Notes: generated by a model not told the origin, from the sequence alone. A DNA stretch of 64,000 bases from Candidatus Moraniibacteriota bacterium (GCA_049297495.1 JBAQUL010000012.1:43616-107615), one strand, 5' to 3'; positions 10,449-31,752 are shown, numbered from the stretch's first letter. Translations and numbers: made by a program.

Positions 10449-10605
10449 GCCTCCTCGCCCTCCGGGAGAGGATGTCACGAGCACGTGACAGGTGAGGGCA
10501 AGGGCTATGAATTAAGAATAATCTAAGCTAATTTAGTTTTTGCTTGACATAGCACCCTTTCCCTCATCCGGCCTTCGGACACCTTCTCTCTGATGGAGAA
10601 GGAGC
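10449..10605. repeat. REP-like imperfect palindromic element, family C copy 1 (blocks cctcctc / gggagaggatgt / gacaggtgaggg / ccctcatccggcc / ccttctc)
   Basis: Shares ordered sequence blocks with 31564-31752; arms caggtgagggcaaggg and ccctttccctcatccgg form an imperfect inverted repeat about 55 nt apart. Confidence 0.55.
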
Positions 10606-10610
10606 TATAT

Positions 10611-10647
10611 AAAAAAATCCCCCGCTTTGGCAGGGGATTTTTTTATG
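10611..10647. terminator. Bidirectional intrinsic terminator (aaaaaaatcccc-cgctttggca-ggggattttttt) between convergent genes
   Basis: Seen in sequence: GC stem flanked by A7 and T7 tracts. Confidence 0.7.
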
Positions 10648-12145
10648 CTCCTCCAATTCCTAGGATTGGAACTGGTTCAGGGAAGACAAAGGAATTAAGG
10701 ATTGTGGCACCATCTTTTTCATCAGTAAAGAAGAGCTTTTCTAGGCCATTATTGTGGATGACAAAAGGTGTCTCTAGGCTGCCACTAATCAGATCCAGGC
10801 AGTTGCGATGATCGCGCGCGTCGAGTTCGATTATCTTTGTGTATTTTCCAACACTAAAAATGATGTGCTCATAGTCTTTGTACCATTGGATATTTCTTAG
10901 GTTTTCGGAGTAGCGTGTTATATTGTTCAGATCATTTTCATAACGAATTGGTTGTACGGTCCAATTACGAGTGTAGTATACAGAGATTTCGTTATTACTA
11001 TAAAAAAGCAATTTTTTCCCATCATTAGAAAAGTGCATTTCTGCTACTTGACTTCCGAGTGCTCGGAAATATTTTTCATTTTCTCCATAGTTATAGATAA
11101 AAAGATTTTGATTTTGATCAAGAAAGGCGATACGAAATTCGTCGTAAACGGTGATTCTTTTTATGGTTGGGTTTGTTGTATCAGGAAAGCTATTGGTAAT
11201 TTGAATTTTTTCCGATTTTCCATCAAGACTGGTCTTGAAAATAAGATTATTAGGCGATTGGACAAAATAAACACCGTTATAGGCCAAGTCGTATGCGCTG
11301 ATGTCGCTCGCGATTTTGGTTATGTCCGTTGCGTCTTTGAAATTTGCCCGAAAAAGCGATGTGCCCTCCAAAAAGAAGAGATAACCTTTTTCTTTTGGAT
11401 CCCACCTTACATAGCGAATATCATTTTTTCCAAAAAAAGTGTTTAGGTTTGTTGTGCTATTGTCACTAAGATCAATGACGAAATAGGCGGTCTGGAATTG
11501 ATTTTCCAGTGAACTTGTTTTTAATTCTACCGCATTATTTTTTTCCACAGGGACGGAAAGATAATTTTCATCCGGCGACCACTCGATATTTTCCTTCTTA
11601 TCCTCCGCAAGAAGTTTCCATCCAGTCAGTGTGTAATTGTTGATAACGAGTTTACTGTCCAGGTCTAATTCTTTTACCAAGAGTGCATTTTCTGTGTTGG
11701 TTGTGAAAGCAATGAAGCGATTCCTGGGTGACGTGAAAAATTTATCAATTCCACGTGTTGATTCATAGAGGGTTTTTTCGTAATTCTTTCTCGTCAGAAC
11801 GACATTCCAAAATTCACTAGAGACGCCACTGTGGACGTCAATTTTTTTATTCCAAGAATAAAAATCTTTTGCGGAGATTTCAATTTCGTAATCCGCAGGA
11901 AGGAGGCCCGAGAGGTTGAATGAGTTGTTGATTCTGTTTGGGGTAGCTGTTTCATTGGCATTGCCATTGAGCGTCGTAGTGATGTTTTGCGGATTAGCCT
12001 TAAAAGAAATCGTTCCGCTATAGACGAAAACACCTCGATGCCAATCGAAGCGGTAACCGCGAGCTTCCAAGACGATAATCGGGGTAATTATGAAGAAAAT
12101 TAAGACGAGTGACCAAAAAAATAGAGTACGTTTGAATCTTTCCAT
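10643..12145 (-). CDS. Membrane-anchored protein with a predicted beta-propeller (TolB/PD40-like) ectodomain, hypothetical
   Basis: 500 aa; N-terminal TM (FFWSLVLIFFIITPIIVL); repetitive beta-strand-rich sequence; similar architecture to 38840-40186. Confidence 0.4.
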   Translation of the reverse strand: MERFKRTLFFWSLVLIFFIITPIIVLEARGYRFDWHRGVFVYSGTISFKANPQNITTTLNGNANETATPNRINNSFNLSGLLPADYEIEISAKDFYSWNKKIDVHSGVSSEFWNVVLTRKNYEKTLYESTRGIDKFFTSPRNRFIAFTTNTENALLVKELDLDSKLVINNYTLTGWKLLAEDKKENIEWSPDENYLSVPVEKNNAVELKTSSLENQFQTAYFVIDLSDNSTTNLNTFFGKNDIRYVRWDPKEKGYLFFLEGTSLFRANFKDATDITKIASDISAYDLAYNGVYFVQSPNNLIFKTSLDGKSEKIQITNSFPDTTNPTIKRITVYDEFRIAFLDQNQNLFIYNYGENEKYFRALGSQVAEMHFSNDGKKLLFYSNNEISVYYTRNWTVQPIRYENDLNNITRYSENLRNIQWYKDYEHIIFSVGKYTKIIELDARDHRNCLDLISGSLETPFVIHNNGLEKLFFTDEKDGATILNSFVFPEPVPILGIGGA

Positions 12146-12269
12146 GGATAAATACTAGCTGGATTTGCGGTTTTTGTCTAGCCTGGTATTTAGGGTGCGC
12201 CCTAACTTGAAAAAGGGGCTTTATCGGGTTAATTTCAGCTAGAGGAAGGAGTGGGAGACGCTCTGACGA

Positions 12270-12296
12270 TTGACTAAGTAATAATTGTGCTATAAT
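12270..12296 (+). promoter_or_regulatory. Possible sigma70-like promoter TTGACT-15-TATAAT upstream of 12334
   Basis: Seen in sequence; the spacer is short (15 nt), so this is weak. Confidence 0.3.
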
Positions 12297-12333
12297 AAAT
12301 CATAAGGATAGGCGAATTAACTGAAGTTTTTAT

Positions 12334-13074
12334 ATGAGTCGGAATAGCAGTATATTATTAGTAGGAGCGTTTTGTTTAGTTGCCCTGATTTTTGGCAATG
12401 TTTTTTGGCAGATGTTTGCCCATGGCAATAATGAGGCTTTTGAAAAAATCAAAAAAGAAACAGATGCTAATTTGGCAAAAAAACAAATCGCTGCTGCTAC
12501 TTCGCCAGCTTCAGGTGCGCCGTCTGCTTTGGGCGCTTCAACGAATACTGTGCCAGAAAATAATTCAAGCGAATCAGGAGCTGCTCAGAGTTTGCCGCAA
12601 AAAGACGCCGATCCTCAAGCGGCGGAGTCGGAAGAAACTCCAGACAGTACAACGGAAAAGCCGAAAGATGATACGGAGGACTGGAAAACCTATACAGATG
12701 AAAAAAATAAATTTGAATTTAAATATCCAAGCGATGCTCAAATAGTTCATGGTGGAGATTTGGTCCGTGTTTCTCAAAATGATAAAACCTGGAAGCTTAG
12801 GGCATATTCTGATAAGGATAAGCTGGACCTGCAATCTTGGTATAATAAGGAGTTTTCAGAAAAGGAACGAAAAAATTGCACACTCACAGAGTCGACCTTA
12901 AAGGTGGGAAGTTATGAGACAAAATATGTTAATCCTAACTCCGGACAAACGGAATGTGAGAAACCGGGTTATTATTCAATCAGTAGCACTAAAGAGCGGG
13001 TAGTTAGAGTGGAGCTTGGCGATGAGACGATGGATAATGTGAATAAAATTTTGAAAACTTTCATATTTCAGTAG
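12334..13074 (+). CDS. Membrane-anchored hypothetical protein with a low-complexity Ala/Ser/Glu-rich linker and a C-terminal globular domain
   Basis: 246 aa; N-terminal TM ILLVGAFCLVALIFGNVFW; no recognisable catalytic motif. Confidence 0.4.
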   Translation: MSRNSSILLVGAFCLVALIFGNVFWQMFAHGNNEAFEKIKKETDANLAKKQIAAATSPASGAPSALGASTNTVPENNSSESGAAQSLPQKDADPQAAESEETPDSTTEKPKDDTEDWKTYTDEKNKFEFKYPSDAQIVHGGDLVRVSQNDKTWKLRAYSDKDKLDLQSWYNKEFSEKERKNCTLTESTLKVGSYETKYVNPNSGQTECEKPGYYSISSTKERVVRVELGDETMDNVNKILKTFIFQ

Positions 13075-13110
13075 GGCATAAATTGTGACGCATCCAGGAC
13101 ACATATTTTT

Positions 13111-13139
13111 TTGACAGAATAATTGATAAATAGTATAGT
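13111..13139 (+). promoter_or_regulatory. Sigma70-like promoter TTGACA-17-TATAGT, followed by an approximately 120 nt structured leader before khpA
   Basis: Seen in sequence: ttgacagaataattgataaatagtatagt; leader has complementary segments gtaagag / ctcttac and ggaag / cttcc. Confidence 0.5.
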
Positions 13140-13265
13140 ATAGGAAGTAAGAGAATTTCGTTAAGGCTAGCTTAATAGCTTAGCGAATGACAGCGATGGT
13201 GGGCCGGTCGATCTTCCGAAGCCCTCTTACTCGAAGTTAATAATCTTTAATCTAGAATTGCGTTT

Positions 13266-13607
13266 ATGACTACAATCCAAGTTACTGACAAAGAGTTTGT
13301 TGAATATGTTGTGAAACAAATTGTTAACAAACCAGATGATGTTAAGGTGGAAAGAAAGATTGATGAAATGGGTGTGCTAATTACGCTTGATGTCAATCCT
13401 GAAGATATGGGAATGATCATTGGTCGTGAGGGTGCTACAGCGAAAGCTTTGCGAACACTTTTGCGTGTAATTGGTGCAAGGAATAATGCCCGAGTTAATC
13501 TCAAGATTAACGAACCAGAGGGATCTGAGCGAAAACCAAGAGAAGATCGAGAACCCAGAGAAGAAGTACGAAAAAGTATTGACGATGTCGTAGGTGATAT
13601 TGTCTAA
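13266..13607 (+). CDS. khpA: KH-domain RNA-binding protein (YlqC/KhpA family)
   Basis: 113 aa; VLITLDVNPEDMGMIIGREGATAKALRTLL KH/GxxG motif; sits immediately upstream of trmD as in the canonical rpsP-khpA-rimM-trmD neighbourhood. Confidence 0.65.
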   Translation: MTTIQVTDKEFVEYVVKQIVNKPDDVKVERKIDEMGVLITLDVNPEDMGMIIGREGATAKALRTLLRVIGARNNARVNLKINEPEGSERKPREDREPREEVRKSIDDVVGDIV

Positions 13608-13687
13608 TACTACCCAAATTTAGAAATATGCAAAAAGGCTGGCAGATGCTAGCCTTTTTTGATTTGTTTTGCTATTATGAGTGTAAT

Positions 13688-14389
13688 ATGCAATTCCACA
13701 TTGTTACAATTTTTCCGCGTATTTTAGACTCTTATCTCAAAGAGTCGATTATTGGGCGCGCCCGAAAAAACGGAGCAATTGAAGTTTTTGCTCATAATCT
13801 ACGGGATTATACGACAGACAAGCACGGGAAAGTCGATGATACGCCCTATGGCGGTGGAGCGGGGATGGTGCTTCAGGTTCAGCCGATATATGCTTGTGTG
13901 GAAGCGATAAAATCCAAATTTCCAATTTCTAACCTTGCCTACCGGCAGGCAGGTTTCCAATCAAATCCAAAATCCAAAATCCAAAATCCAAAAGTTAGAA
14001 CGATTTTATTTTCCGCCAAAGGCAAAAAATATACGGAGCGGTCGGCGGAAAGACTGGCGAAATATGACAAGCTGATTTTAATCTGTGGACGGTATGAGGG
14101 TGTGGACGAGCGTGTAGCACGGAACATTGCTGATGAAGAAATCTCTATTGGAGATTATGTTCTTACGGGAGGTGAACTTCCGGCGATGGTGCTCATTGAT
14201 TCAGTGACGCGGCTCTTGCCTGGAGTTTTAGGCAATGATGCCAGTTCCAAATACGAGTCGCACAGTCGAAAAAATTATAAAGAGCATCCTCAATATAGCA
14301 AACCAGCCAGTTTCAATGATTGGGAAGTCCCGGCAGTCCTTCTGGGCGGAAATCATGGTGAGATAGAAAAATGGCGAGAAAAAAATTAA
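13688..14389 (+). CDS. trmD: tRNA (guanine37-N1)-methyltransferase TrmD (ORF opens at 13628; conserved N-terminus starts at 13688)
   Basis: MQFHIVTIFP..., GGGAGMV, RYEGVDERV, LTGGELPA motifs of SPOUT TrmD; contains an extra loop encoded by a 4x heptanucleotide repeat. Confidence 0.85.
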   Translation: MQFHIVTIFPRILDSYLKESIIGRARKNGAIEVFAHNLRDYTTDKHGKVDDTPYGGGAGMVLQVQPIYACVEAIKSKFPISNLAYRQAGFQSNPKSKIQNPKVRTILFSAKGKKYTERSAERLAKYDKLILICGRYEGVDERVARNIADEEISIGDYVLTGGELPAMVLIDSVTRLLPGVLGNDASSKYESHSRKNYKEHPQYSKPASFNDWEVPAVLLGGNHGEIEKWREKN

Positions 14390-14410
14390 GCTTATTTAAT
14401 TTCGAAAAAA

Positions 14411-15523
14411 ATGGCCAAACGCGAACGACATGGAGTGAATAAAAATTTACTTTTCGTAGTGCTTCTTCTCATTACTTTTGGCCTGGCGATGATCGCTTCA
14501 GCCGGAATCGCTTATTCTCGTAGTCGTTTTGGCGATTCCTATTATTTTTTTAAGCATCAACTCCTCTACGGTGTTTTACCGGGATTTTTTGTTTTATATG
14601 TTGCGCAAAAAATTGATTATAACTTTTGGAAAAAAATCGCTTTCCCTCTTTTTATCTTAAGTATTTTCTTTCTTGTTTTAGTCTTTGTGCCAGGAGTTGG
14701 CTCGAAGATATATGGCGCCAGTCGCTGGCTCCAATTGGGTCCATTTTCTTTCCAACCTTCGGAAATGTTAAAATTATCGATTATTATCTACCTCTCGGCT
14801 TGGCTCGAGAGTCGCGCTGAAAAAGTGAAAGATTTCTATGAAGGCTTGATTCCCTTTCTTGCCGTGGTGGGAGTTGTCAGTTTTCTTTTGGAAAAACAGC
14901 CGGACATGGGAACGCTAGGCGTGATCATTTTTATTGCCATGTCAATATTTTTCATTTCAGGCGCCCGACTTTCACATATGTTTATGATTGCTGCTTCTGG
15001 ATTTGCCGCGCTGGCCATTCTCATTAAATTTGAATCCTATCGTATGGATCGTTTTTTGGTTTTTCTTCACCCCGAGCTTGATCCGCGTGGGATTGGCTAT
15101 CAAATCAATCAAGCGCTTCTTGCAATCGGTTCCGGGGGAATTTTTGGAGTAGGCTTGGGCCATAGTTTGCAAAAATTCAACTACTTACCGGAACCGGTGG
15201 GCGATTCAATTTTTGCTATTATCGGAGAGGAGCTGGGCATGATTGGTGTTGTTACTTTGATTTTGTTGTTTTTGTCTCTTGCGATGATTGGTTTTCGGAT
15301 TGCCAAGAATGCCCCTGATCGCTTTTCCCAACTCACGGCGATTGGCATTACATGCTGGATCACTTTTCAAGCGTTCATTAATATTTCAGCCATCTCCGGA
15401 CTCATTCCACTCACCGGAATTCCTTTGCCATTCATTAGTTATGGTGGAACATCATTGGTTTTTTTGATGGCAGGAATCGGGGTGCTTTTGAATATTTCCA
15501 AGCAGACAAGTTTGAATAATTGA
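14411..15523 (+). CDS. ftsW: SEDS-family peptidoglycan glycosyltransferase (FtsW/RodA)
   Basis: 370 aa, 10 TM; GGIFGVGLGHSLQKFNYLPEPVGDSIFAIIGEELG SEDS signature; position upstream of murG in the dcw-type order favours FtsW. Confidence 0.8.
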   Translation: MAKRERHGVNKNLLFVVLLLITFGLAMIASAGIAYSRSRFGDSYYFFKHQLLYGVLPGFFVLYVAQKIDYNFWKKIAFPLFILSIFFLVLVFVPGVGSKIYGASRWLQLGPFSFQPSEMLKLSIIIYLSAWLESRAEKVKDFYEGLIPFLAVVGVVSFLLEKQPDMGTLGVIIFIAMSIFFISGARLSHMFMIAASGFAALAILIKFESYRMDRFLVFLHPELDPRGIGYQINQALLAIGSGGIFGVGLGHSLQKFNYLPEPVGDSIFAIIGEELGMIGVVTLILLFLSLAMIGFRIAKNAPDRFSQLTAIGITCWITFQAFINISAISGLIPLTGIPLPFISYGGTSLVFLMAGIGVLLNISKQTSLNN

Positions 15524-15532
15524 TTTTTTAAT

Positions 15533-17569
15533 ATGAAAAGGTTGATTAAAAACTTTAAAGAAGTCTCCAAATCCGACGCCCAAATCGCTGGCGGTAAAGG
15601 CGCATCGCTTGGTGAGATGACGCAAGCAGGAGTTCCAGTTCCTCCAGGTTTTGTTGTGCTCTCCGAAGCGTTTGAGCAGTTTCTCTCCGAAACGGATTTG
15701 AATGTGGAAATTGAGGCAATTCTCAAAACTGTGGATAATCAGAAAATGCATACGGTGGAAAATGCATCAGAAGAAATTCAAGCGCTAATTCTCCAAGCTA
15801 AGATGCCGGAGGATATTGCAAAAGAGATTCAGGAAAACTTCAAAAAACTTGATGCCAAGTTTGTGGCCGTGAGATCAAGTGCCACCGCCGAAGATGGCGC
15901 CGAAGCGGCTTGGGCGGGGCAGCTAGACAGTTATCTCAATACGAACCAAGAAGCACTTCTTAGAAACGTCCAAAAATGCTGGGCATCACTTTTTACGCCA
16001 AGAGCTATTTTTTATCGTTTTGAAAAAAAACTGCACAAGCAAAAAATTTCCGTGGCAGTCGTCATTCAAAAAATGATTCAAAGTGAAATTTCTGGCATTG
16101 CCTTTTCGGTGCATCCGGTGACAGAAGACTATAATCAAATGATTATCGAAGCCGGCTTTGGTTTGGGCGAAGCGATTGTGTCTGGGTCGATTACTCCCGA
16201 TGCCTATGTGGTGAGTAAAAGTTCGAGAAAAATAGAGGACATCAATATTTCCCAGCAGTCCAAGGGGCTTTTCAGAAAAGAATCTGGTGGTAATGTTTGG
16301 CAAGATATTCCTGAAAAAGAAGGCAAAAAACAAAAGCTGACAAAAAAGCAAATCCTGGAATTATCAGATTTGATCATGAAAATCGAAGACCACTATCAAT
16401 TTCCGGTGGACATCGAGTGGGCATATGAAAACAAGAAATTCTATATTGTGCAATCGAGGCCGATTACAACACTTTTTAAAAAGGAAGACGTGATTGATGG
16501 AAAGCTGATCAAATATATGCAGCGGGACTATAAGCTTCGGGATTTATCTATAACTTTCTGGTCGCTGCTTAATCCTAATTTTTTGAAAGAGATATATTAC
16601 AAAGAAGCGCTGTATGTAATGAATAGAGGATTAGTTACTTCATACATACGCTCAGAAGATGCCGAAAGAATTAATAATGACTTATCTGAGGCCATAAAAA
16701 GGGATTCTGGATATATATCCAATGCACTAAAGGAGGGTGTGCGTACGCTAGCTTTAGTGAAAAGAACTGCTGGGAAAAATATTTGCGAGGGCATTATAAA
16801 AAAGGATGCTTTGAAACTATTCGAAGAGGCGGAAAATAGTTGGAATCAATTTGGGATTTTTTTTGAATTTACTCATGCGCTGGGAAGGATTGACGCGAAG
16901 CTATCAAAAGCTCAAATAGACAGATTGAGTAAGTTTCATAATGATAGAAAAAGCGTGTTTTTAGATTTTTTTAAATTTCTAGAAAATCTTTGCTTGAGTG
17001 TTTCAAGTAACGATCCGAAGATTAAACAAAAAAACCTCGCCTATCTGACTATTCCCGAGATAAAAAAGTATTTAACGGGTAAATTAGATTGCCAAGAAAT
17101 AAATAGATTGCAATCTAGCCGACAAAAGGGTTATCTATATCATGCATATTCAGCAAAAAAAGAAGGTGAAATAATTTCGGATTTAAAGGGAATACGGGCG
17201 AAAGAACTGCTCTCGAGAATAGATTCTGAGGAAAATAGTGAGTTAGCTGGCGTGAGTGTGTCTAGCGGTAAGGTGACTGGAGAGGTTAAAATTATATCGC
17301 TAAACACGAAGCTAAAAAATGAAGATGTTTCCAGGAAAATAATCGTCACGACAATGACTACACCAAGCATGGATATTTTTTTGAAAAAAGTTAGAGGGAT
17401 AGTGACGGAAGAGGGTGGCGCATTATGTCACGCAGCGATTTTTGCGAGAGAGGCAAAAATCCCAACGATTACTCTGGTTAAAAATATTACCAATATCTTA
17501 AAAGACGGCGATTTAGTGGAAGTTGACGCCAATGAGGGGGTGGTCAGGGTTTTGAAAAGAAAAAGTTGA
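15533..17569 (+). CDS. PEP-synthase/rifampin-phosphotransferase-like enzyme: N-terminal PPDK_N ATP-grasp domain, about 250 aa middle domain of unknown function, C-terminal PEP-utilising phosphohistidine swivel domain; no PEP/pyruvate TIM-barrel domain
   Basis: N-terminus aligns by eye with PpsA N-terminal domain (GGKGASLGEM, VAVRSSATAEDG, FPVDIEWAYENKKFYIVQSRP); C-terminus has GxVxGxVKII...TTMTTP...TEEGGALCHAAIFAREAKIP mobile-domain signature with catalytic His. Confidence 0.75.
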   Translation: MKRLIKNFKEVSKSDAQIAGGKGASLGEMTQAGVPVPPGFVVLSEAFEQFLSETDLNVEIEAILKTVDNQKMHTVENASEEIQALILQAKMPEDIAKEIQENFKKLDAKFVAVRSSATAEDGAEAAWAGQLDSYLNTNQEALLRNVQKCWASLFTPRAIFYRFEKKLHKQKISVAVVIQKMIQSEISGIAFSVHPVTEDYNQMIIEAGFGLGEAIVSGSITPDAYVVSKSSRKIEDINISQQSKGLFRKESGGNVWQDIPEKEGKKQKLTKKQILELSDLIMKIEDHYQFPVDIEWAYENKKFYIVQSRPITTLFKKEDVIDGKLIKYMQRDYKLRDLSITFWSLLNPNFLKEIYYKEALYVMNRGLVTSYIRSEDAERINNDLSEAIKRDSGYISNALKEGVRTLALVKRTAGKNICEGIIKKDALKLFEEAENSWNQFGIFFEFTHALGRIDAKLSKAQIDRLSKFHNDRKSVFLDFFKFLENLCLSVSSNDPKIKQKNLAYLTIPEIKKYLTGKLDCQEINRLQSSRQKGYLYHAYSAKKEGEIISDLKGIRAKELLSRIDSEENSELAGVSVSSGKVTGEVKIISLNTKLKNEDVSRKIIVTTMTTPSMDIFLKKVRGIVTEEGGALCHAAIFAREAKIPTITLVKNITNILKDGDLVEVDANEGVVRVLKRKS

Positions 17570-17672
17570 AAAATAGTCGGGCTTGATGATAAAAATTAAC
17601 CCTGCTAAAATTTTTATGAAAAATTTTGAAATAAACATTAGTCCAGAAAAAGAGAGGAAAAAATTCAGTCAT

Positions 17673-18452
17673 ATGAAAGTTTTTCGAGTGAGGCATGGGG
17701 ATACGCAATATCATGAGCATACGCAAGGTAAAAAAATGGAACGGGAAGATCTTGATGTAACTCCTAAGGGAGAAATGCAAATGGACTCAGTCGCTAGAAT
17801 TATTGGACGAAGACTTAATAAAGAAAATGATGTCATATGCGTGATTGCTAGTCCAAGAGTGAGGACTCAGAATGGAAAGAAAATTTTTGAGGAATATTTC
17901 AAGAAAAAAGGTTTTAGCGTATTAAATAATAAGAGAATCGATCTACCTCAAGAAAGAATAAAAAGTGTTGATATTTACGATGATGCAGGAAATGTTGTCC
18001 CAGTGGGTGATGAAAAACATCCAGCGCTTTTCGAAAGAATTGTTTCAGATCTGGAAAAACGCACTCCGGAAGGAATGAGTAGAGATGCATATATGTTCGA
18101 AAGTGGTCATGAAAATTTGGAATCTTTCGAGGAAAGTAAAAAACGATCCAGGAGGCAACTGGCTGGATTCATGCGGATAGCCAAAAATATCCAACTTAAA
18201 TTTGATAAGCACATCGTCATTATTCAGATCGAGCATTGCGAAACACTGGATGATTTCTATGAGCAAGCAAGCGGTGGCGAATATTCTATGATTAGTGATT
18301 CAGGGCCAAAAAAGGGAGAAGTGGTGGAACTTGATATTCCGGTCGAGGGCAATGAAATAGAAGTGGAATTTATTGGAAGAGAAAGGGGCAAGAAAAGAAA
18401 AGTAAGATTTGATTATTTATCGAAAAACTTTCTGCAAGAAGAAAAAAAATAG
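17673..18452 (+). CDS. Histidine-phosphatase superfamily (PGAM-like branch) protein (ORF opens at 17583; conserved RHG start at 17673)
   Basis: MKVFRVRHGDTQY (RHG motif), VIASPRVRTQNG (SPxxRAxQTA-like), later H in IIQIEHCETL. Confidence 0.5.
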   Translation: MKVFRVRHGDTQYHEHTQGKKMEREDLDVTPKGEMQMDSVARIIGRRLNKENDVICVIASPRVRTQNGKKIFEEYFKKKGFSVLNNKRIDLPQERIKSVDIYDDAGNVVPVGDEKHPALFERIVSDLEKRTPEGMSRDAYMFESGHENLESFEESKKRSRRQLAGFMRIAKNIQLKFDKHIVIIQIEHCETLDDFYEQASGGEYSMISDSGPKKGEVVELDIPVEGNEIEVEFIGRERGKKRKVRFDYLSKNFLQEEKK

Positions 18453-18494
18453 AAAAAGACTATTTCAAGAGATAAATTTTAAAGTTAGATATCT

Positions 18495-19478: not shown

Positions 19479-19480
19479 CT

Positions 19481-19591
19481 GGGATTGCCACCCAAGTTCT
19501 CAAAGATGGTGATTTGGTGGAGGTTGACGCTAATGATGGAATCGTTAGAATCATAAGGAAGGCAAAAGGAAATTTGGTAAAAAATCAATAA
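19481..19591 (+). pseudogene. Relic 3' fragment of a PEP-utilising phosphohistidine swivel domain gene (no start codon, about 37 codons)
   Basis: Frame-2 translation GIATQVLKDGDLVEVDANDGIVRIIRKAKG* matches the C-terminus NILKDGDLVEVDANEGVVRVLKRKS of 15533-17569 and NILKNGDEIEMDMKTGEIRVV of 21370-22914; DNA diverged at synonymous sites. Confidence 0.6.
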
Positions 19592-19604
19592 TCATAAAAT
19601 TTTT

Positions 19605-22914: not shown

Positions 22915-22967
22915 TTGTAGAATTGGGTAAGGATAGAAATTCAAATAATTAATCAAAATTAAATTTT

Positions 22968-24071: not shown

Positions 24072-24080
24072 AATAACTAT

Positions 24081-25472: not shown

Positions 25473-25474
25473 AC

Positions 25475-25497
25475 ATTGAATGTCTACAATTTAGTGT
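25475..25497. repeat. Perfect 23-bp palindrome TTGTAGACATT-G-AATGTCTACAA carrying GTAG/CTAC, 10 bp upstream of the RAYT start (REP-like / subterminal hairpin; may also act as the murC terminator)
   Basis: Seen in sequence; 11-bp perfect arms; GTAG tetranucleotide as in REP/IS200 recognition hairpins. Confidence 0.6.
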
Positions 25498-25506
25498 AAT
25501 ATAGGT

Positions 25507-26172
25507 ATGCGTAAAACAGCATTTGCCAATGGTGAATATTATCATATTTATAATCGCGGGGTGGATAAGCGAGAGGTGTTTTTGTGTGATGGAGATTATA
25601 AACGATTTATTGTGGGGATGAATGAATTTAATTGTAGTAAGGCTATTGGTAGTTTGCGAGATAAGCGGGTACGTGAGAATCAGGAGTTGAGCTCCTGGAG
25701 CTCCAGGAGCTCAACTCCTGATTCTGTTCTACAGTCTTTAGTTCAAATTATCGCCTATTGTCTGAATTCAAATCATTATCACTTAATTCTGAGGCAAGTT
25801 AGCGAAAGGGGTATTGAAAAGTTCATGCACAAACTAAGTACTGGCTATACTAATTATTTCAATAAAAAATCTAATCGAACAGGCGCGCTTTTTCAAGGAC
25901 GCTACAAATCCATTCATATTAACTCCAATGAATATCTGTTGCATCTGTCGGTTTACGTAAACGCCAATCACGCGGTTCATAATTACGAAGAAAAAGACTG
26001 GCCATATTCTAGTTATTTAGATTATACTGGGAAGAGAACGGGAAAACTCTGTGAAAAAGTAACAATCTTGGGGCAGTTTGATGACAATCTACTGGAATAC
26101 GAAAAGTTTATGCGAAATAATACGAACTATTTTAGGGAGAAAAAGGAAATGGAGAAATATATTTTGGAATAG
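25507..26172 (+). CDS. HUH Y1 transposase of the COG1943 / REP-associated tyrosine transposase (RAYT, IS200-like TnpA) family
   Basis: GEYYHIYNRGVDKREVF...DYKRF (motif I), NHYHLIL (HUH), YFNKKSNRTGALFQGRYKSI...EYLLHLSVYVNANHAVHNYEEKDWPYSSY (catalytic Tyr region); contains an in-frame 16-codon palindromic insertion. Confidence 0.85.
   Translation: MRKTAFANGEYYHIYNRGVDKREVFLCDGDYKRFIVGMNEFNCSKAIGSLRDKRVRENQELSSWSSRSSTPDSVLQSLVQIIAYCLNSNHYHLILRQVSERGIEKFMHKLSTGYTNYFNKKSNRTGALFQGRYKSIHINSNEYLLHLSVYVNANHAVHNYEEKDWPYSSYLDYTGKRTGKLCEKVTILGQFDDNLLEYEKFMRNNTNYFREKKEMEKYILE
25677..25724. repeat. 48-bp perfect palindrome (gaatcaggagttgagctcctggag | ctccaggagctcaactcctgattc) inside the RAYT coding sequence, in frame (encodes NQELSSWSSRSSTPDS)
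   Basis: Seen in sequence; exact reverse complement of the two 24-nt arms. Confidence 0.9.
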
Positions 26173-26187
26173 TTTTGAAATAAAAAA

Positions 26188-28935
26188 ATGCTAGCAAAAA
26201 ACAAAAAAAATATCTACAATTTAACACCCGAAGAAGTCTTAAAAAAATTCGGTTCCAATCAGGATGGATTGAGTTTGGATGAAGCGAAAAGCAGACTAGC
26301 TGAGTTTGGGGAAAATAAGATTACTAGAAAGCAAAACTGGAAATGGTTGAAATTAATTCTCGCTCAGTTTAATGATGCGCTGGTGTGGATTTTGCTTGTG
26401 GCAGCGGGACTGGCTTTGGCTTTCGGGGAATATCGCGACGCGACAATTATTTCCATTATCGTTCTCTTGAATGCTACGGTTGGTTTTTTTCAGGAGTTCA
26501 AAGCGGACCGAGTTTTGGAAAGCATCAAAAAGCTAACAGCTAGTTATGCGCTCGTGTTTCGTTTGAGTGAGAAAAAACAGCTTGATACAAGGCTGGTCGT
26601 TCCCGGAGATATTGTTTTTATCGCGGCTGGCGATAGTATCGCGGCGGATGGGTACATTTTGGAAAGTTATGACTTAAAAGTCAATAGTTTTATCTTCACC
26701 GGAGAATCGAAACCAAAAAGGAAAGAATCAAAAATAATCCAGGATACTAGCGTGGCTTTTGCTGACATTGATAATATGGTGTTTATGGGGGAAACGGTGG
26801 CAACTGGCGAAGCAAGGTTCGTGGTGACGGGCACTGGAATGAACACGGAACTTGGGCGTATCGCACATCTTACGCAAGAAGTTGAAAATGATCTGACACC
26901 ACTTCAAAAACAAATGCGCACGCTTGGGCGTGATGTGACAATTCTTTCTGTTTTCATTGGCATCATTGTTCTTGTCGCCGGGCAATATTTCAAGATGTCT
27001 CTTTATCAGAATTTTCTATTTGCCTTAGCTCTTTCTGTCTCTGTGGTTCCCGAGGGATTGCCGGCGGCAATTTCTGTGGCACTGTCTTTTGGCATGAAGC
27101 GCCTAATCAAAGAAAATGTGTTGGCCAAGAAATTAAATGCTGTTGAGACTCTTGGTTCTGTTTCAATGATTTGTACGGATAAAACCGGTACAATTACGCG
27201 AAATGAACTGGCGGTAACGAAGATTGTGATTAATGGAGAGACTTTGGATTTGGACGGAGCAGGCTATGTTCCAGTTGGAAATTTTTATTATAAAAATGAA
27301 AAAATTGATCCGAAAGTCGTTTCTAATTTGGAGTTGCTATTTCGTATAGGAACACTTTGCAATGACGCGAGCCTCGTATATGACGAGAAAAGTTATAAAA
27401 TAATTGGCGATCCAACGGAAGGAGCGATTATCGTGGCGGGACAAAAATATAATAAGACAAAAAAGTTTTATGAGCGAGGGGAGAAAAAAATCAATGAAAA
27501 CCCATTTTCGTCAGAGCGGATGCGGATGAGTGTGGTGTACAAAAACTCAAAAACGATTTCCTATGTCAAAGGCTCACCAGATGTAATGATTGAGCTTTGT
27601 AACTTCATTAAGATTGGCGAGAGTATTTTGCCCTTCAACGAGGAGGAAAAAAGCAGAGCCAAGGCAATTTACAATCAGATGTCAGGAGATGCTTTGAGAG
27701 TGTTGGCGTTTGCTTATCGCGACTTGGATGGATTTTCGGAAAATAAATATTTAGCGGAAGCGGAAAAAGGGTTGGTTTGGGTGGGAATGATGGCAATGAT
27801 TGACCCGCCACGTGCCAATGTGGGTAGTGCAATTGCCGAATGTCGTAATCTTGGAATTAGCGTTGTTATGATTACGGGGGATTATGAAATAACAGCCAGA
27901 GCGATTGCGGAAAATGTGGGACTTGTTGGTAAAAAAGAGGCAAAAAGCAGTTTGGTTATAAACGGGAAAGAATTGGACATACTCAAAGATAGGGAGCTAT
28001 ATCAAAAGATTAAAAACGGTGTTTGTGTTTTTGCGCGGATTGCACCGGAACAGAAATTGCGGATTGCGACGGTACTCAAAAGGAACGGTGAGGTGATCGC
28101 TATGACAGGCGATGGTGTAAATGATGCACCAGCCCTCAAAAAAGCTGATATTGGTGTGGCCATGGGAGTTATTGGCACAGACGTCTCGAAGGAAGCAGCA
28201 AGCATGATTCTTTTGGATGACAATTTTGCTTCAATTGTAAAAGGCGTGAGAGTTGGTCGAACAATTTTTCAAAATCTCAAAAAATTTGTGCACTATGTTT
28301 TCACCTCTAACGCTAGTGAATTATTTGTAGTAATTTTGGGCGTGCTTTTGCAAATTCCTTCTCCAATTTCAGCTGTGCAAATTTTGGCAGTTGACTTGGG
28401 GACAGATATCTTTCCCTCTTTTGCGCTTGGGCTTGAGCCAGAAGAACCGGGCGCAGCCAAGACAGAATTGAATTCTAGGCGAAGCATCATGAGCTTTGGT
28501 GGCTTTCGCAGAATTATTTATTTAGGAATTATTATGGCAACAGGTGCGGTCGTCGCATTTCTTTGGTCGATGCTTCGTGGGGGATGGCAATTCGGTGAGA
28601 GTTTTTCGGTGGACAGTATCTTGTATCTCAAATCAACTACAGCGGCTTATGCCGTTCTCTCAATGACACAAATGGCAAATCTTTTGCAAGCACGCAGTGA
28701 AACGCTCTCGCCCTTTCAGCTTGGATTTTTTAGGAATAAATACGCGATTGGAGCAATCGGGGTATCTTTGATAATTTTATTATTATTCATGTATTTGCCT
28801 TTCTGTCAGCAATATCTGCGGATGTTGCCGATTGATGGGTATGATTGGTTGGTAGTTTTGGGCTCATTTTTGGCGGTGTTTTTCTGGGAAGAAATGCGTA
28901 AGGAGGATGTCCGGAAAGGCGAAAAATCAGCTTGA
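26188..28935 (+). CDS. P-type cation-transporting ATPase, type II (Ca2+/Mg2+ SERCA/PMCA-like)
   Basis: 915 aa; TGES, PEGLPA, DKTGTIT, TGDGVNDAPALKKADIGVAMG motifs; 10 TM topology. Confidence 0.85.
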   Translation: MLAKNKKNIYNLTPEEVLKKFGSNQDGLSLDEAKSRLAEFGENKITRKQNWKWLKLILAQFNDALVWILLVAAGLALAFGEYRDATIISIIVLLNATVGFFQEFKADRVLESIKKLTASYALVFRLSEKKQLDTRLVVPGDIVFIAAGDSIAADGYILESYDLKVNSFIFTGESKPKRKESKIIQDTSVAFADIDNMVFMGETVATGEARFVVTGTGMNTELGRIAHLTQEVENDLTPLQKQMRTLGRDVTILSVFIGIIVLVAGQYFKMSLYQNFLFALALSVSVVPEGLPAAISVALSFGMKRLIKENVLAKKLNAVETLGSVSMICTDKTGTITRNELAVTKIVINGETLDLDGAGYVPVGNFYYKNEKIDPKVVSNLELLFRIGTLCNDASLVYDEKSYKIIGDPTEGAIIVAGQKYNKTKKFYERGEKKINENPFSSERMRMSVVYKNSKTISYVKGSPDVMIELCNFIKIGESILPFNEEEKSRAKAIYNQMSGDALRVLAFAYRDLDGFSENKYLAEAEKGLVWVGMMAMIDPPRANVGSAIAECRNLGISVVMITGDYEITARAIAENVGLVGKKEAKSSLVINGKELDILKDRELYQKIKNGVCVFARIAPEQKLRIATVLKRNGEVIAMTGDGVNDAPALKKADIGVAMGVIGTDVSKEAASMILLDDNFASIVKGVRVGRTIFQNLKKFVHYVFTSNASELFVVILGVLLQIPSPISAVQILAVDLGTDIFPSFALGLEPEEPGAAKTELNSRRSIMSFGGFRRIIYLGIIMATGAVVAFLWSMLRGGWQFGESFSVDSILYLKSTTAAYAVLSMTQMANLLQARSETLSPFQLGFFRNKYAIGAIGVSLIILLLFMYLPFCQQYLRMLPIDGYDWLVVLGSFLAVFFWEEMRKEDVRKGEKSA

Positions 28936-28998
28936 GTCTGGGTGGTTTTTGTGGTATTCTGAAAGTGAGGTCGGGTTAATTTGTTAGAATCATAAAAT

Positions 28999-29385
28999 AT
29001 GCAAGGTACAGCAAGCGTCATCCTGAGCATCTTGGTTGTTGTAATAGTAATTTTGCTTTTTAAAGGGGGGAAATCTAATTATAATAAGGCGAATAATTTT
29101 TTAAAGTTATTAAAAGAAAAAGATTTTGAAAAATGGAAAGAACTTGGCGAGCCGAGGATAATGTTAATCATGCCAAATGCAATCATTACAAACAAGGGTC
29201 CTTATATAAGTGATATTCGGGCGTATGTTAAATATGCTAATTTTGGGGATTTCTCTGATCAAGAATTGAAAATTGCCCTTGAGGATGTCCGAAACGTTTT
29301 TTCCATTAAACCTTTTGATCTTATTGCAGTGATTGCTATTTATGCCATATTTATAGGAGCGCTTGTTTACGCGACATTATTTTAA
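28999..29385 (+). CDS. Small two-TM membrane protein, hypothetical (overlaps murB start by 23 nt)
   Basis: 128 aa; hydrophobic N- and C-terminal helices. Confidence 0.35.
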   Translation: MQGTASVILSILVVVIVILLFKGGKSNYNKANNFLKLLKEKDFEKWKELGEPRIMLIMPNAIITNKGPYISDIRAYVKYANFGDFSDQELKIALEDVRNVFSIKPFDLIAVIAIYAIFIGALVYATLF

Positions 29386-30379
29386 TATTATGTTAACTAT
29401 CCAAAAAAATATTCCCTTGGCACCACTGACCACTTTTAAAATTGGCGGACCGGCAAAGTTTTTTTGTGTGGCAAAAGATAAAAGCGAGCTGTTGGAAGCA
29501 CTGGATTTCGCTAAAGAAAATAAATTGGAAATTTTTATGCTTGGCGGGGGCAGTAATGTTTTATTTAGCGACAAAGGTTTTGATGGGTTAGTTATAAAAA
29601 TGCAATCATCAGAAGTCAGTGAACCCTCCTTCGCTAAAGCTACAGCGGGCAAGCAAGATGCTAAAATTGAATGTTGGGCGGGAGAAAGTTTGGCGAGCGT
29701 CGTTAATTTTACTAAGGAAAATAGTCTTATGGGAATGGAATGGGCGGTGGGGATTCCGGGAACAGTTGGTGGGGCGGTGCGGGGTAATGCTGGAGCTCCC
29801 TGGGGGTGTATGGCAGATAGTATTGAAAGCGTACGTGGGATAAATTTAGAAAATCAAGAAAGTATTGATTATTCTCGCGAAGATTGCAAATTTAGTTATC
29901 GTGATTCTGTTTTCAAGAAAGATAAGAATTTATTAATTTTATCTTGTATATTAAAAATGCAAAAAGGTGAGCGAGATATGATTGAAAAAAGAATGCAAGA
30001 AATTTCCAAAACCCGTTCAGATAATCAGCCAAAAGGTCTTAGCTCTGGTAGTTTTTTTCAAAATCCGGTTGTGAGTGATAAGAATCTTATTGCTGAATTT
30101 GAAAAAGATACAGGAAAAAAGATAGAAGAGAACAAGAGTCTCTATAAGCAAGAAAGAGGTGAAATTAAGCTTCCTGCTGGCTGGCTGATTGAAGAAGCTG
30201 GGTTTAAAGGAAAAAAAATTGGCGGAGTGATGGTGAGCGAGAAACATGCTAACTTTTTCATCAATGATGGAACGGGCACTGCAGAGGATGTTGTAATTCT
30301 TGCCGGAATAATCAAGCAGAAGATACGAGAAGAATTTGATACTCAAATTAAGGAGGAAATTATTTATGTCGGATTTTAG
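29363..30379 (+). CDS. murB: UDP-N-acetylenolpyruvoylglucosamine reductase MurB
   Basis: LAPLTTFKIGGPAKFF...MLGGGSNVLF FAD-binding domain motifs; long C-terminal domain. Confidence 0.8.
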   Translation: MFTRHYFNIMLTIQKNIPLAPLTTFKIGGPAKFFCVAKDKSELLEALDFAKENKLEIFMLGGGSNVLFSDKGFDGLVIKMQSSEVSEPSFAKATAGKQDAKIECWAGESLASVVNFTKENSLMGMEWAVGIPGTVGGAVRGNAGAPWGCMADSIESVRGINLENQESIDYSREDCKFSYRDSVFKKDKNLLILSCILKMQKGERDMIEKRMQEISKTRSDNQPKGLSSGSFFQNPVVSDKNLIAEFEKDTGKKIEENKSLYKQERGEIKLPAGWLIEEAGFKGKKIGGVMVSEKHANFFINDGTGTAEDVVILAGIIKQKIREEFDTQIKEEIIYVGF

Positions 30380-30454
30380 CTATAGATTGAACTAATTAAC
30401 ATATCGGGATTTTAAGGAAAAAGTCATTTTCCTCATAATCTCGATCAAAAACAT

Positions 30455-30829
30455 ATGGTAGTTAAAAAACCACAAAGCATGAGGATGATGTTTAAGGGCA
30501 TAGACTCGGATAAGAAGGCCGAGGCCTATATTGAAAAAAGATTACAAAAAGTCAATCGAATAATCAAGAATGTTTTGGAGTTTGAGGTGGAAATTTGCCT
30601 AGATAAAAAGGGTAAGTATCGCGTAGAATTAATGGTAAAAACTCCCTACGCGCTTTACCGAGCAGAAGAAATATCTGAGAGTATTGAGGGCTCAGCTGAC
30701 ATCGCTTGCGAAGAGTTGACCACGCAAATTGTCAAAGACAAAAGCAAAATGGTTGATCTCAAAAGACGCGGCGCAAGATCTCTGAAGAAAAAAATCGTAC
30801 TGGATGAGGACTCGAGGTTTAAGAAATAG
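30455..30829 (+). CDS. hpf: Ribosome hibernation promoting factor (HPF/RaiA, sigma-54 modulation protein family); likely start at an internal Met (30479)
   Basis: KGIDSDKKAEAYIEKRLQKVNRII...FEVEI...YRVELMV...LYRAEEISESIEGSADIACEEL beta-alpha-beta-beta-beta-alpha pattern of the RaiA family. Confidence 0.7.
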   Translation: MVVKKPQSMRMMFKGIDSDKKAEAYIEKRLQKVNRIIKNVLEFEVEICLDKKGKYRVELMVKTPYALYRAEEISESIEGSADIACEELTTQIVKDKSKMVDLKRRGARSLKKKIVLDEDSRFKK

Positions 30830-30831
30830 AT

Positions 30832-30861
30832 TTGACAAAAATAGTCATTTCTTGTTAGAGT
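30832..30861 (+). promoter_or_regulatory. Sigma70-like promoter TTGACA-18-TGnTAGAGT (extended -10) downstream of hpf
   Basis: Seen in sequence: ttgacaaaaatagtcatttcttgttagagt. Confidence 0.45.
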
Positions 30862-30867
30862 GAAAGC

Positions 30868-31027
30868 GTAAATATTTTAAACACATGAACAGCGCCAAAA
30901 GAACAATTTCTCAAGGTTTTCCGGTTCCGGCAAAGGCAGGCTGCTTTTGTGTGTTTGGAATCGGAGATTAAACTTCATCATTACAAACAGACATGAAACA
31001 GCTTGCCTTTTGCGAGCTGTTTTTTTG
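30868..31027 (+). ncRNA. Candidate small RNA or attenuator leader, about 160 nt, bounded by the promoter at 30832 and an intrinsic terminator at 30998-31027
   Basis: Promoter followed by a non-coding stretch ending in hairpin acagcttgc-ctttt-gcgagctgt + T7; the internal plus-strand ORF (30947-31252) looks spurious; no family assignment possible by eye. Confidence 0.3.
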
Positions 31028-31092
31028 TTCTTTGGTAGAAGTGTTTCCGTTTTTTACTTTATTATTTCAACCCAAATCGAAAGGAAAAAGCT

Positions 31093-31428
31093 ATGGACTA
31101 CGAAATTGAGAAACTCAACAAAGTGCAAGCGGGTGAAGCAGCTAGTCTTTTGGCAAAAAATGGCATCGAAAAGACTGTTGATGAAATTTTGGCATCAAAG
31201 TGTCTCGTGGCAACCAATGAAAACGAAGAAATCATTGCTTTTGCCGAGGTAACCGGCCAGGACAAAGCCAGTGTGTTCTGTTTCATAGATATAGGCAAAA
31301 GGAAAAAAATAGAAATTAAAGGGAAATTTTTCTCAGTGATTTTTAGTAAAAAGACATGGGAAAGCGAAAAATATGTCAGAACTGGAATTACTCAGCAGCA
31401 AAGAAGTTGGATGTTTCCTGGAGGATGA
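31093..31428 (+). CDS. Hypothetical protein
   Basis: 111 aa ORF with RBS-like aaaggaaaaagctATG; no recognisable motifs. Confidence 0.35.
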   Translation: MDYEIEKLNKVQAGEAASLLAKNGIEKTVDEILASKCLVATNENEEIIAFAEVTGQDKASVFCFIDIGKRKKIEIKGKFFSVIFSKKTWESEKYVRTGITQQQRSWMFPGG

Positions 31429-31453
31429 GATTTTTCGAGTAAAAACAGAAAAA

Positions 31454-31496
31454 TTATGAGAGCGGTCAACGCGCCGCTCTCATAATCAAATTTTTG
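31454..31496 (+). terminator. Intrinsic terminator (12-bp perfect stem ttatgagagcgg / ccgctctcataa, 8-nt loop, followed by tcaaattttt)
   Basis: Seen in sequence immediately after the 31093 ORF stop. Confidence 0.65.
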
Positions 31497-31563
31497 ATGA
31501 ATGGATGATAAATTGACCCTTAGAGCGGTCTATAATATACTTAGAAATAGATAACTTTCGATA

Positions 31564-31752
31564 TCCTCCTCTTCATTAGGGAGAGGATGTTCGAAGGACA
31601 GGTGAGGGAAAAGGGTGTTATTAAAAAAGAGAATCTATATAAATAATGATGGTTGGCTACTCAAAGATTTCTCCCTCATCCGGCCTACAGCCACCCGCCT
31701 GCAACGCTTCGCGTAGCGATACGGGCAGGCCTTCTCCCTAAGGGCGTAAGAC
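31564..31752. repeat. REP-like imperfect palindromic element, family C copy 2 (arm ccctcatccggcctac resembles the classical REP arm; about 45-nt insertion relative to copy 1) in the proS leader
   Basis: Ordered shared blocks with 10449-10605 (cctcctc, gggagaggatgt, gacaggtgaggg, aagggtg, agagaatcta, ccctcatccggcc, ccttctcc). Confidence 0.55.

Follow-up and report, generated by a model that had tools for sequence, protein, structure and literature searches.

A palindromic repeat family with triplex-motif arms in Candidatus Moraniibacteriota and its probable kinship with BoxC/PIT/TMECO elements

The stretch of DNA analyzed here, termed the window, comprises 64,000 nucleotides of a Candidatus Moraniibacteriota genome (GCA_049297495.1 JBAQUL010000012.1:43616-107615) and carries two copies of a conserved non-coding element, designated family C, that had been noticed previously by inspection. 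That sequence-only reading described ordered blocks common to the two copies and a long hairpin formed by inverted arms, and proposed a repetitive extragenic palindromic (REP)/BIME-like element, a structured small RNA (sRNA) or a cis-regulatory RNA. The element was followed in metagenome-assembled genomes (MAGs) of the candidate phyla radiation (CPR) and in more distant phyla, with loci designated by L and a number. The evidence assembled below favors the first of these proposals.

Position and surroundings of the two copies

Proteins encoded in the window are 62-90% identical to those of Moraniibacteriota MAGs, and the window contains no tRNA or tmRNA gene. Copy 1 begins 10 nt past the stop codon of a DUF4012 gene and terminates 6 nt ahead of a hairpin with a T-run. 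Its placement between convergent genes and ahead of a terminator-like hairpin, as proposed initially, was borne out by sequence and fold. Copy 2 is situated between a promoter-like site and the start of proS at position 31783. GC skew is positive in all 2-kb bins of the window (1-64000) without a switch, and the whole window therefore lies on one replichore; both copies share the orientation that is commonest relative to GC skew. A 113-nt direct repeat of 73% identity (9273-9385 and 42378-42490) probably is a paralogous coding segment, as its first copy is located inside the DUF4012 gene upstream of copy 1.

A search of the window with an nhmmer profile built from about 100 relatives of the element returned just two matches, at 10444-10617 (E=6e-37) and 31561-31747 (E=1e-25). 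The shared blocks GACAGGTGAGGG (10487 and 31597) and CCCTCATCCGGCC (10561 and 31673) each occur exactly twice on the + strand, where 0.05-0.2 matches per block are expected by chance. The block GGGAGAGGATGT likewise occurs just twice on this strand, at 10464 and 31579, and the order of blocks is identical in the two copies. Their identity is 62% end to end and 77% when only aligned columns are counted. The occurrence of two family C copies in the window thus was confirmed, and the blocks persisted in a MAFFT alignment, a check that the initial description had called for. Certain details of that description require adjustment. Most of the blocks listed are common to both copies, but 'agaatct' is so only approximately. 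The arms AGGTGAGGG and CCCTCATCC are inverted partners as stated, but are 62-64 nt apart which is slightly more than the 55 nt given. The long hairpin exists, but is just the central one of five and not the whole structure. Copy 2, for which a 45-nt insertion had been noted, carries an additional hairpin module of 35 nt. The pseudo-two-fold symmetry of the element and the mirror-repeat (triplex-motif) character of its arms had been overlooked.

Architecture, folding and genomic context of family C

The general plan of the element was derived from reading about 100 copies. The right half is the reverse complement of a left-type unit, and the element therefore is an inverted dimer of a ~50-nt unit with pseudo-two-fold symmetry. 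From left to right the modules are a pyrimidine arm Y1 (CCTCTCCC); loop1, which is 3 nt in CPR and longer in other lineages; a purine arm R1 (GGGAGAGG) followed by ATG; a small variable hairpin H2 (GTC...GAC); a mirror purine arm RH1 (A-GGTGAGGG); the variable interior of hairpin H3, which is AT-rich in CPR and GC-rich in other lineages; RHc (CCCTCATCC); a small hairpin H4 (GG..CC); Y2 (A-CCTTCTCCC); loop2, which resembles loop1; and R2 (GGGAGAAGG). The base of the long central hairpin H3 is formed by RH1 paired with RHc, the two mirror arms of the dimer. The left terminal hairpin H1 is paired in 96% across 29 CPR copies. Optional hairpin modules, either CCTGCCTACCGGCAGGCAGG or the 35-nt module of copy 2, are accommodated at one fixed unit position in either half, and half-units also occur alone or attached to a full element via a conserved linker. 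The coordinates of the modules in the two window copies and of the adjoining signals are collected in Table 1.

Table 1. Modules of the two family C copies and adjoining signals in the window
Feature	Position	Strand	Sequence and remarks
Copy 1, whole element	10450-10604	+	155 nt; two triad units (Y, R and mirror arm) as an inverted dimer around the central hairpin; boundaries from module coordinates
Copy 1 H1, left terminal hairpin	10450-10472	+	Y1 CCTCCTCGCCC, loop TCC, R1 GGGAGAGGA; T>G variant in Y1 produces one mismatch
Copy 1 H2, small variable hairpin	10474-10489	+	GTCACG-AGCA-CGTGAC; located where E. coli TMECO has its 3-nt second loop
Copy 1 H3, central hairpin	10490-10569	+	RH1 AGGTGAGGG (10490-10498) pairs with CCCTCATCC (10561-10569); AT-rich variable interior
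Copy 1 H4, small hairpin	10570-10580	+	GGCCTTCGGAC
Copy 1 H5, right terminal hairpin	10582-10604	+	Y2 CCTTCTCTC, loop TGAT, R2 GGAGAAGGAG; inverted counterpart of H1
Bidirectional terminator-like hairpin	10611-10644	.	A-run and T-run; outside the element, common to two convergent genes; from sequence and fold, unlisted by a simple consensus scan
Promoter-like site upstream of copy 2	31513-31541	+	TTGACC-17-TATACT; also in the 98%-identical strain that lacks the element
Copy 2, whole element	31563-31750	+	188 nt; both terminal hairpins degenerate; boundaries from module coordinates
Copy 2 H1	31563-31588	+	Y1 mutated (CTCTTCA for CTCTCCC) relative to the consensus of about 100 copies, loop TTA, R1 GGGAGAGGAT
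Copy 2 H2, short form	31589-31599	+	GTTC-GAA-GGAC; compensated differences from copy 1
Copy 2 H3	31600-31681	+	RH1 AGGTGAGGG (31600-31608) pairs with CCCTCATCC (31673-31681); AT-rich interior of a subfamily other than that of copy 1
Copy 2 H4	31682-31692	+	GGCCTACAGCC
Copy 2 optional inserted hairpin module	31696-31730	+	35 nt, CGCCTGCAACGCTTCGCGTAGCGATACGGGCAGGC; identical module at the same unit position in LacPavin copies L028 and L099
Copy 2 H5	31731-31750	+	Y2 CTTCTCCC, loop TAA, degenerate R2 GGGCGTAAG

The H3 interior of copy 2 is nearest to those of the copies in L055 and L092. The 20-nt mini-palindrome CCTGCCTACCGGCAGGCAGG is an optional family C module in L018, L020, L024, L032, L055, L078 and L102, and was observed also at the center of a repeat of the TGTC family (L058, about 4950) and in a small cluster in L099 (5050-5110). 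The element ends in GGAGAAGG(GG)ATAT without the T-run of an intrinsic terminator. A small conserved open reading frame (ORF) was considered and rejected: the ATG in GGAGAGGATG opens different short frames in copies 1 and 2.

Under purine-motif rules (G*G, A*A, T*A), the second purine arm of a unit when reversed corresponds to the first purine arm. The correspondence is 8/8 in the left units of copies 1 and 2, and 8/9 and 9/9, respectively, in the right units on the opposite strand. Among all perfect 8-nt pyrimidine/purine hairpins in every locus examined, 588 of 1331 (44%) are followed by a perfect third arm within 60 nt downstream, compared to 43 (3%) in the upstream control. The pairs of R and RH arms recovered were GGGAGAGG with GGTGAGGG, GGAGAAGG with GGATGAGG, GGGGAGGG with GGGTGGGG, GGGGGAGG with GG[AT]GGGGG, and GGGAGGGG with GGGGTGGG; the two commonest pairs are partly fixed by the search patterns and the remaining ones are by-catch. 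In Phycisphaerae, the change to GGTGGGGG is found in 5/8 units whose duplex has become GGGGGAGG and in 0 of about 24 others, with the caveat that H3 can accommodate this A>G change as a G-T wobble as well, and that it may have arisen only once. The mirror relation is kept across sequence variants. A plain hairpin would not need this relation, and a three-strand register is its simplest reading. As the Y, R and mirror arms vary together, what is conserved would be a three-arm register and not merely a hairpin.

In folding models that consider Watson-Crick and wobble pairs, copy 1 forms five hairpins either as RNA or as single-stranded DNA (ssDNA). The RNA fold, terminator included, gave z = -7.4, and copy 2 folded no better than shuffled sequences (z = -1.3). 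Folded as ssDNA, each strand of copy 1 yields these five hairpins, with equivalent energies of -36.4 and -35.2 kcal/mol (z about -5.8). Covariation was assessed by counting pairs in MAFFT alignments made without reference to a structure. In the CPR alignment 91.6% of cells were paired compared to 86.5% after shuffling, with a covariation score of 0.120 versus 0.055, and in the cross-phylum alignment the values were 88.9% versus 78.3% and 0.179 versus 0.057; in both cases 0/500 shuffles scored as high. The paired fraction dropped to about 40-58% in slid controls. Double-sided changes were evident in H2 (pair 37:63, UA14/AU11/CG4/GC3; pair 38:62, CG23/GC5/UA4), in the first variable pairs of H3 (76:151, UA15/AU9/GC7/CG2) and in H4 (164:175, CG29/UA12/GC6 cross-phylum; 142:151, CG17/UA11 in CPR). 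The compensatory changes that had been proposed as a check thus are present: they maintain the hairpins, and folding of the single strand, whether DNA or RNA, therefore is under selection. The loops of H1 and H5 also covary between copies (21:166, UA12/CG9; 22:165, CG19/AU6) which fits either long-range pairing of the ends or ends that are maintained as inverted repeats. No association indicative of long-range pairing was detected between the Y1 T>G and R2 A>C variants, which are independent (7 and 4 cases, 1 shared).

The copies lie mostly just 3' of co-oriented genes. Among CPR copies, whose gene context was taken from a crude ORF caller, 30 of those between tandem genes are co-oriented and 5 are opposed (binomial p about 2e-5), 13 are between convergent genes and 3 between divergent genes, and about half are no more than 20 nt from the upstream stop codon. 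Neither regular spacing nor association with a gene class was apparent. Relative to local GC skew, orientation was positive for 43 copies and not for 7. Family C is gained and lost at orthologous intergenic sites: when orthologous gene pairs were compared across CPR MAGs, some sites were filled in two or three species, whereas in six pairs the element was present in one species and the site was empty in the other. One empty orthologous site is located within the window at about 38375.

The proS region was compared most extensively. None of 80 metagenomic loci that encode ProRS relatives (50-98% identity) carries the element. In the strain with a 98%-identical ProRS, the upstream terminator and promoter are the same as in the window base for base, the element is absent, and a different 75-nt leader is present. 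The location of copy 2 upstream of proS is as first described, but family C is not a proS leader, as demonstrated by the 80 relatives including the strain with the same promoter. The comparison also led to rejection of a T-box or attenuator of proS. In the 98%-identical strain (L110 1420-1500, contig Ga0194063_10026972), a small TGTC-type TGTCATCCTTCGCAGGAATGACA hairpin occupies the proS leader in place of family C, so that close relatives carry different palindromic repeats at a single intergenic site. Family C is not specific to proS or to any other gene, and the two window copies probably serve no particular gene.

These data bear on the view that family C is a structured non-coding RNA that acts in cis or in trans, either as a riboswitch-like proS leader or as an sRNA derived from a 3' untranslated region (UTR), with the blocks serving as RNA motifs. 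The pronounced stability of copy 1 as RNA, the compensatory changes in H2, H3 and H4, the co-orientation with neighboring genes, the placement of copy 2 between the promoter-like site and proS, and a conserved G-U pair in H3 that would be an A-C mismatch on the opposite strand are in keeping with this view. However, dozens of copies adjoin unrelated genes, the element is absent from the proS relatives, copy 2 is degenerate, and half-units are found alone and in the opposite arrangement. Rfam searches at the gathering threshold (window and 17 loci) and in E-value mode (both copies) identified no family in any lineage, and produced only sub-threshold chance matches, for example to MIR408 and, on the terminator, to Leu_leader. 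Moreover, the reverse strand folds equally well and there is no excess of G-U over A-C (10 versus 18). The structure therefore is real, yet nothing singles out an RNA of the + strand. Neither the cis-regulatory RNA nor the structured sRNA proposed at the outset is upheld; a functional RNA is the rival explanation that is least compatible with the data and is considered very improbable.

Spread of the family and kinship with other repeats

The search for further copies that had been suggested was productive. A scan with the pattern ACAGGTGAGGG N45-75 CCCTCATCCGG in one genome per species yielded at least 100 matches, with up to 30 in one MAG among the matches listed; these derive from several Moraniibacteriota MAGs, Phycisphaerae, Planctomycetota, Bradyrhizobium, Hyphomicrobiales, other Alphaproteobacteria and Chthonomonas. 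Within the 100 pattern-scan loci and the window, the profile retrieved 152 non-redundant copies, including 118 of full length. The loci contain 38-42% G+C in CPR and 58-65% in the other lineages, and modules outside the pattern (H1, H5 and ATGTC) also are conserved. Identity between copies of one genome peaks at about 91% (median 72-78%), and copy 1 is 89% identical to a copy in another MAG compared to 62% to copy 2. Family C is an old, diversified population. Density in very small CPR genomes is about 1 copy per 30 kb, and many copies are degenerate or truncated. Plasmid records (Rhizobium, Shinella, Sinorhizobium, Azospirillum, Xanthomonas, Deinococcus) contain half-units only, some of them tail-to-tail in the opposite arrangement. 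A phage genome collection gave no matches to the full element or the left unit, and in IMG/VR contigs the right-type unit is frequent, but the full element and left unit never were found. Literature searches with family C block sequences recovered unrelated eukaryotic primer matches only, and a search on miniature inverted-repeat transposable elements (MITEs) in Patescibacteria revealed nothing relevant.

The distribution also is relevant to the possibility that family C is a DNA element that serves the host, as a site for a nucleoid or replication protein or as a programmed triplex or cruciform signal for replication or transcription, and is kept by host selection. Core arms that are near-identical over phyla 25% G+C apart, a mirror rule that holds over variants, the retention of some sites between species, and the density of copies in very small genomes might be expected of such an element. 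Against this, close relatives have freely gained and lost sites, degeneration or truncation affects many copies, no regular spacing or gene-class association was seen, and the related TMECO repeats possess neither promoter or terminator activity nor an in vivo triplex footprint (PMC4666352). A host-serving role is considered highly unlikely.

The closest counterparts of family C are repeats of E. coli and other Proteobacteria. The PIT (potential intrastrand triplex) element of E. coli reportedly was described by Hoyne and Maher in 2000. BoxC, rediscovered as the PIT element and then as the TMECO 'intrastrand triplex motif', has the form CCCTCNCCC N3-6 GGGNGAGGG N3 GGGNGAGGG, and TMECO is represented by 3610 copies in 262 proteobacterial genomes that are intergenic and at times are inverted pairs (Holder et al., 2015, PMC4666352). 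TMECO ssDNA adopts a triplex in vitro, as established by circular dichroism and nuclear magnetic resonance with the E. coli sequence only; the repeats are devoid of promoter or terminator activity and are linked to local genome instability (PMC4666352). In a preprint, the same BoxC motif was interpreted as a G-quadruplex/hairpin switch. A BoxC-like query matched 5419 of 5426 genomes in an E. coli collection, with a median of 27 places in each.

The three-arm triads are nearly the same: CCCTCTCCC / GGGAGAGGG / GGGTGAGGG in E. coli and CCTCTCCC / GGGAGAGG / GGTGAGGG in family C. Both types of repeat are multi-copy, intergenic and near gene ends, form inverted dimers, and have no known transposase. 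They differ in the length of the arms, which is 8 nt in family C and 9 nt in TMECO, and in the second loop, which is 3 nt in TMECO (TTA or CCG) whereas family C has an 11-45-nt hairpin, sometimes with more hairpin modules; the window copies have an 11-16-nt hairpin at this position. Due to these differences the strict TMECO pattern had 0 matches in the 105 loci examined. The family C dimer, unlike TMECO, encloses a 60-95-nt central hairpin. CPR family C lacks the four GGG runs of the proposed G-quadruplex but retains the triplex register, and the G-quadruplex reading thus does not carry over. Whereas TMECO has been reported from Proteobacteria only, family C occurs also in CPR, Planctomycetota and Armatimonadota. 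A chimeric Xanthomonas element, in which the left half is of TMECO type and the right half is of family C type, supports a single superfamily. Judged from these sequence comparisons, family C appears to join the BoxC/PIT/TMECO superfamily as a new CPR variant.

Family C also resembles REP/BIME elements and REPINs in that short GC-rich hairpin units form inverted doublets that fold into a larger hairpin, and in its preference for sites downstream of coding regions, chiefly those between tandem or convergent genes. A further likeness is the existence of long-lived, diverged populations, as described for REPINs. The REP/BIME-like character recognized in the sequence-only reading was substantiated: family C is multi-copy, interspersed and imperfectly palindromic, with filled and empty orthologous sites. 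However, REP elements and REPINs are defined by GTAG or CGTC (TGTC/CCTC) tags and by RAYT genes (Bertels and Rainey, 2011; Di Nocera et al., 2013, PMC3733652), and no GTAG or CGTC tag was found at the unit ends of about 100 family C copies. Compared to REP, the family C unit is longer and has three arms. Different phyla have the core sequence of family C in common, whereas lineage specificity and vertical inheritance are described for REPIN families. Supplements of a REP paper contained none of the family C arm sequences.

MITEs such as Correia/NEMIS, ERIC, RUP and BOX are 100-200 nt, have terminal inverted repeats, are intergenic and co-transcribed, and form long stem-loops. Family C is similar in size, terminal inverted repeats, intergenic location and long stem-loops, but at the sites compared, where the flanks have diverged, no target-site duplication could be seen, nor was a DDE insertion sequence with the same ends encountered. 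In place of a DDE transposase gene, the candidate partner is a small PD-(D/E)xK endonuclease gene that lies between triads in other phyla.

A classical non-autonomous transposon with a dedicated transposase, that is, a REPIN mobilized by a RAYT (Y1/HUH) or a MITE with the same ends as a DDE insertion sequence, was weighed against these comparisons. Terminal inverted repeats that themselves are hairpins, the REPIN-like inverted doublet, the presence/absence polymorphism, persistence at orthologous sites with old diverged copies as reported for REPINs, and a bias of orientation with GC skew, which is expected of ssDNA insertion, would suit such an element. Furthermore, some RAYT-like (TIRYT) genes are flanked by terminal inverted repeats with a GGGGWSAS motif (PMC3733652). 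Nevertheless, neither the defining tags nor a target-site duplication, sought at sites with diverged flanks, were seen, the genes between paired elements are housekeeping apart from DUF559 genes, and six-frame scanning of the 100 pattern-scan loci and the window for RAYT or Y1-transposase motifs was negative, although this regular-expression search is a weak test. A dedicated transposase of the known kinds is considered unlikely.

Further repeats and features were noted alongside family C. A second palindromic family, represented by a ~150-nt inverted dimer at 6087-6235 and 56905-57054 of the window, is composed of TGTCATCCTGAGCG, a hairpin and GAAGGATCTGCTTG ... AGCAGATTCTTCGAC ... CTCAGAATGACA, and resembles the CGTC/TGTC-tagged head-to-head REP dimers of Di Nocera et al. 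(PMC3733652). The copy of this family in L058 is located at an orthologous intergenic site that holds family C in a LacPavin MAG. In L037 (1620-4113), which is from a LacPavin MAG, a 669-residue membrane-protein ORF includes the repeated in-frame peptides MFHVEQF, NVPRGTF and CSTWN that look like the translation of yet another short palindromic repeat inserted in a coding region. Between two family C copies in L020 (4670-5230), a tmRNA match of 561 nt to a 374-position model suggests that this tmRNA may carry a large insertion.

DUF559 genes and the interpretation of family C

Genes located between closely spaced elements are mostly ordinary, including those for SecDF, SHMT, trigger factor and S18. 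Two DUF559 genes (PF04480, E = 4e-34 and 7e-27) are exceptional: that in L013, from an alphaproteobacterium, is flanked by two inverted full elements, and that in L076, from Chthonomonas, is between units. Of ten genes for relatives of the L013 protein, all of one alphaproteobacterial subfamily, eight have a triad on the same strand that ends 27-41 nt ahead of the start codon and several have an inverted triad right after the stop codon, with no other triads in the 6-kb loci. In E. coli K-12, the DUF559 gene ycjD, which adjoins fabI, has a pyrimidine/purine hairpin across the stop codon. A full BoxC triad follows 167 nt downstream of ycjD, and part of the ycjD 3' end is present in duplicate between the gene and this triad. 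A triad-like Y/R/RH motif of lineage-specific sequence was present within about 120 nt upstream of the gene in each of six diverse DUF559 loci sampled from plasmids or chromids (Sinorhizobium, Sphingomonas, Azospirillum, Deinococcus, Neisseria, Methylobacterium). The mirror rule is kept in five of the six, the Neisseria motif being degenerate and seen by eye only, and an inverted triad also is present downstream in two of the six. Overall, triad-flanked DUF559 genes were found in Alpha-, Beta- and Gammaproteobacteria, Deinococcota, Armatimonadota and IMG/VR contigs. The arrangement of triad, DUF559 gene and inverted triad is the family C plan with a gene replacing the H3 interior.

The triad-flanked DUF559 loci recorded are L307, L313, L314, L316, L319-L323, L324-L329, L013, L076 and L318 (E. 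coli ycjD). In the typical layout the triad is within about 100 nt upstream, often with an inverted one downstream. In two loci (L322 2924-3360 and L323 1864-2300), a triad and DUF559 cassette is inserted in a gene transfer agent/phage-tail cluster between Gp84-like and NlpC/P60 genes, where it looks like an intruding selfish gene. The literature searched included no paper that ties DUF559 or YcjD to BoxC.

Taken together, family C is judged probably to be a non-coding interspersed palindromic repeat of the REP/BIME or MITE kind, which constitutes the branch of the BoxC/PIT/TMECO G/C-rich triplex-motif repeats found in Moraniibacteriota-like CPR. In the mechanism envisaged, the repeat propagates, or did so in the past, in a non-autonomous fashion via folded ssDNA. 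Its likeliest partner would be a DUF559 (Vsr-like PD-(D/E)xK) endonuclease, as the corresponding genes in other phyla sit between or beside the same triads. If transcribed together with the gene upstream, family C is predicted to give rise to highly stable stem-loops, located either between cistrons or in the 3' UTR, that, as in REP elements, may act as an exonuclease barrier and as punctuation of the transcript.

Several points weigh against this interpretation. hmmsearch detected no DUF559 gene in the window or in any CPR, Phycisphaerae, Planctomycetota or Bradyrhizobium locus examined. There are no identical or near-identical copies, and hence no sign of recent mobility, and neither a target-site duplication nor a clean insertion boundary was discernible at the six filled/empty pairs and the proS site, where the flanks have diverged. 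The loci were selected with a pattern that fixes two arms, and conservation of those arms therefore is partly built in. The orientation bias is assignable to neither transcription nor replication which are confounded, with too few discordant cases. The TMECO triplex was not detected in vivo (PMC4666352), and the proposed effect at the RNA level is by analogy with REP alone.

A bolder proposal, which is advanced tentatively and is rather less probable than the interpretation of family C as an interspersed repeat, is that triads of the BoxC/TMECO type, including the CPR family, are non-autonomous derivatives or recognition sites of a widespread selfish DUF559 cassette. The ssDNA fold of the mirror repeat, either a triplex or another three-strand structure, might be what the enzyme recognizes. 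If correct, this proposal would give DUF559 a function and account for the origin of repeats that have lacked an explanation since the 1990s, and would provide the first comparative evidence of a selected intrastrand DNA triplex register across bacterial phyla.

Elements of this type can be mistaken for riboswitches or sRNAs, can yield spurious ORFs and can break MAG assemblies. The BoxC/PIT/TMECO class, reported previously from Proteobacteria only, would extend to Planctomycetota, Armatimonadota and the ultra-small genomes of CPR bacteria in which the copies use up scarce intergenic space. The DUF559 genes that consistently lie between or beside triads provide a concrete candidate enzyme for the making or use of these repeats.

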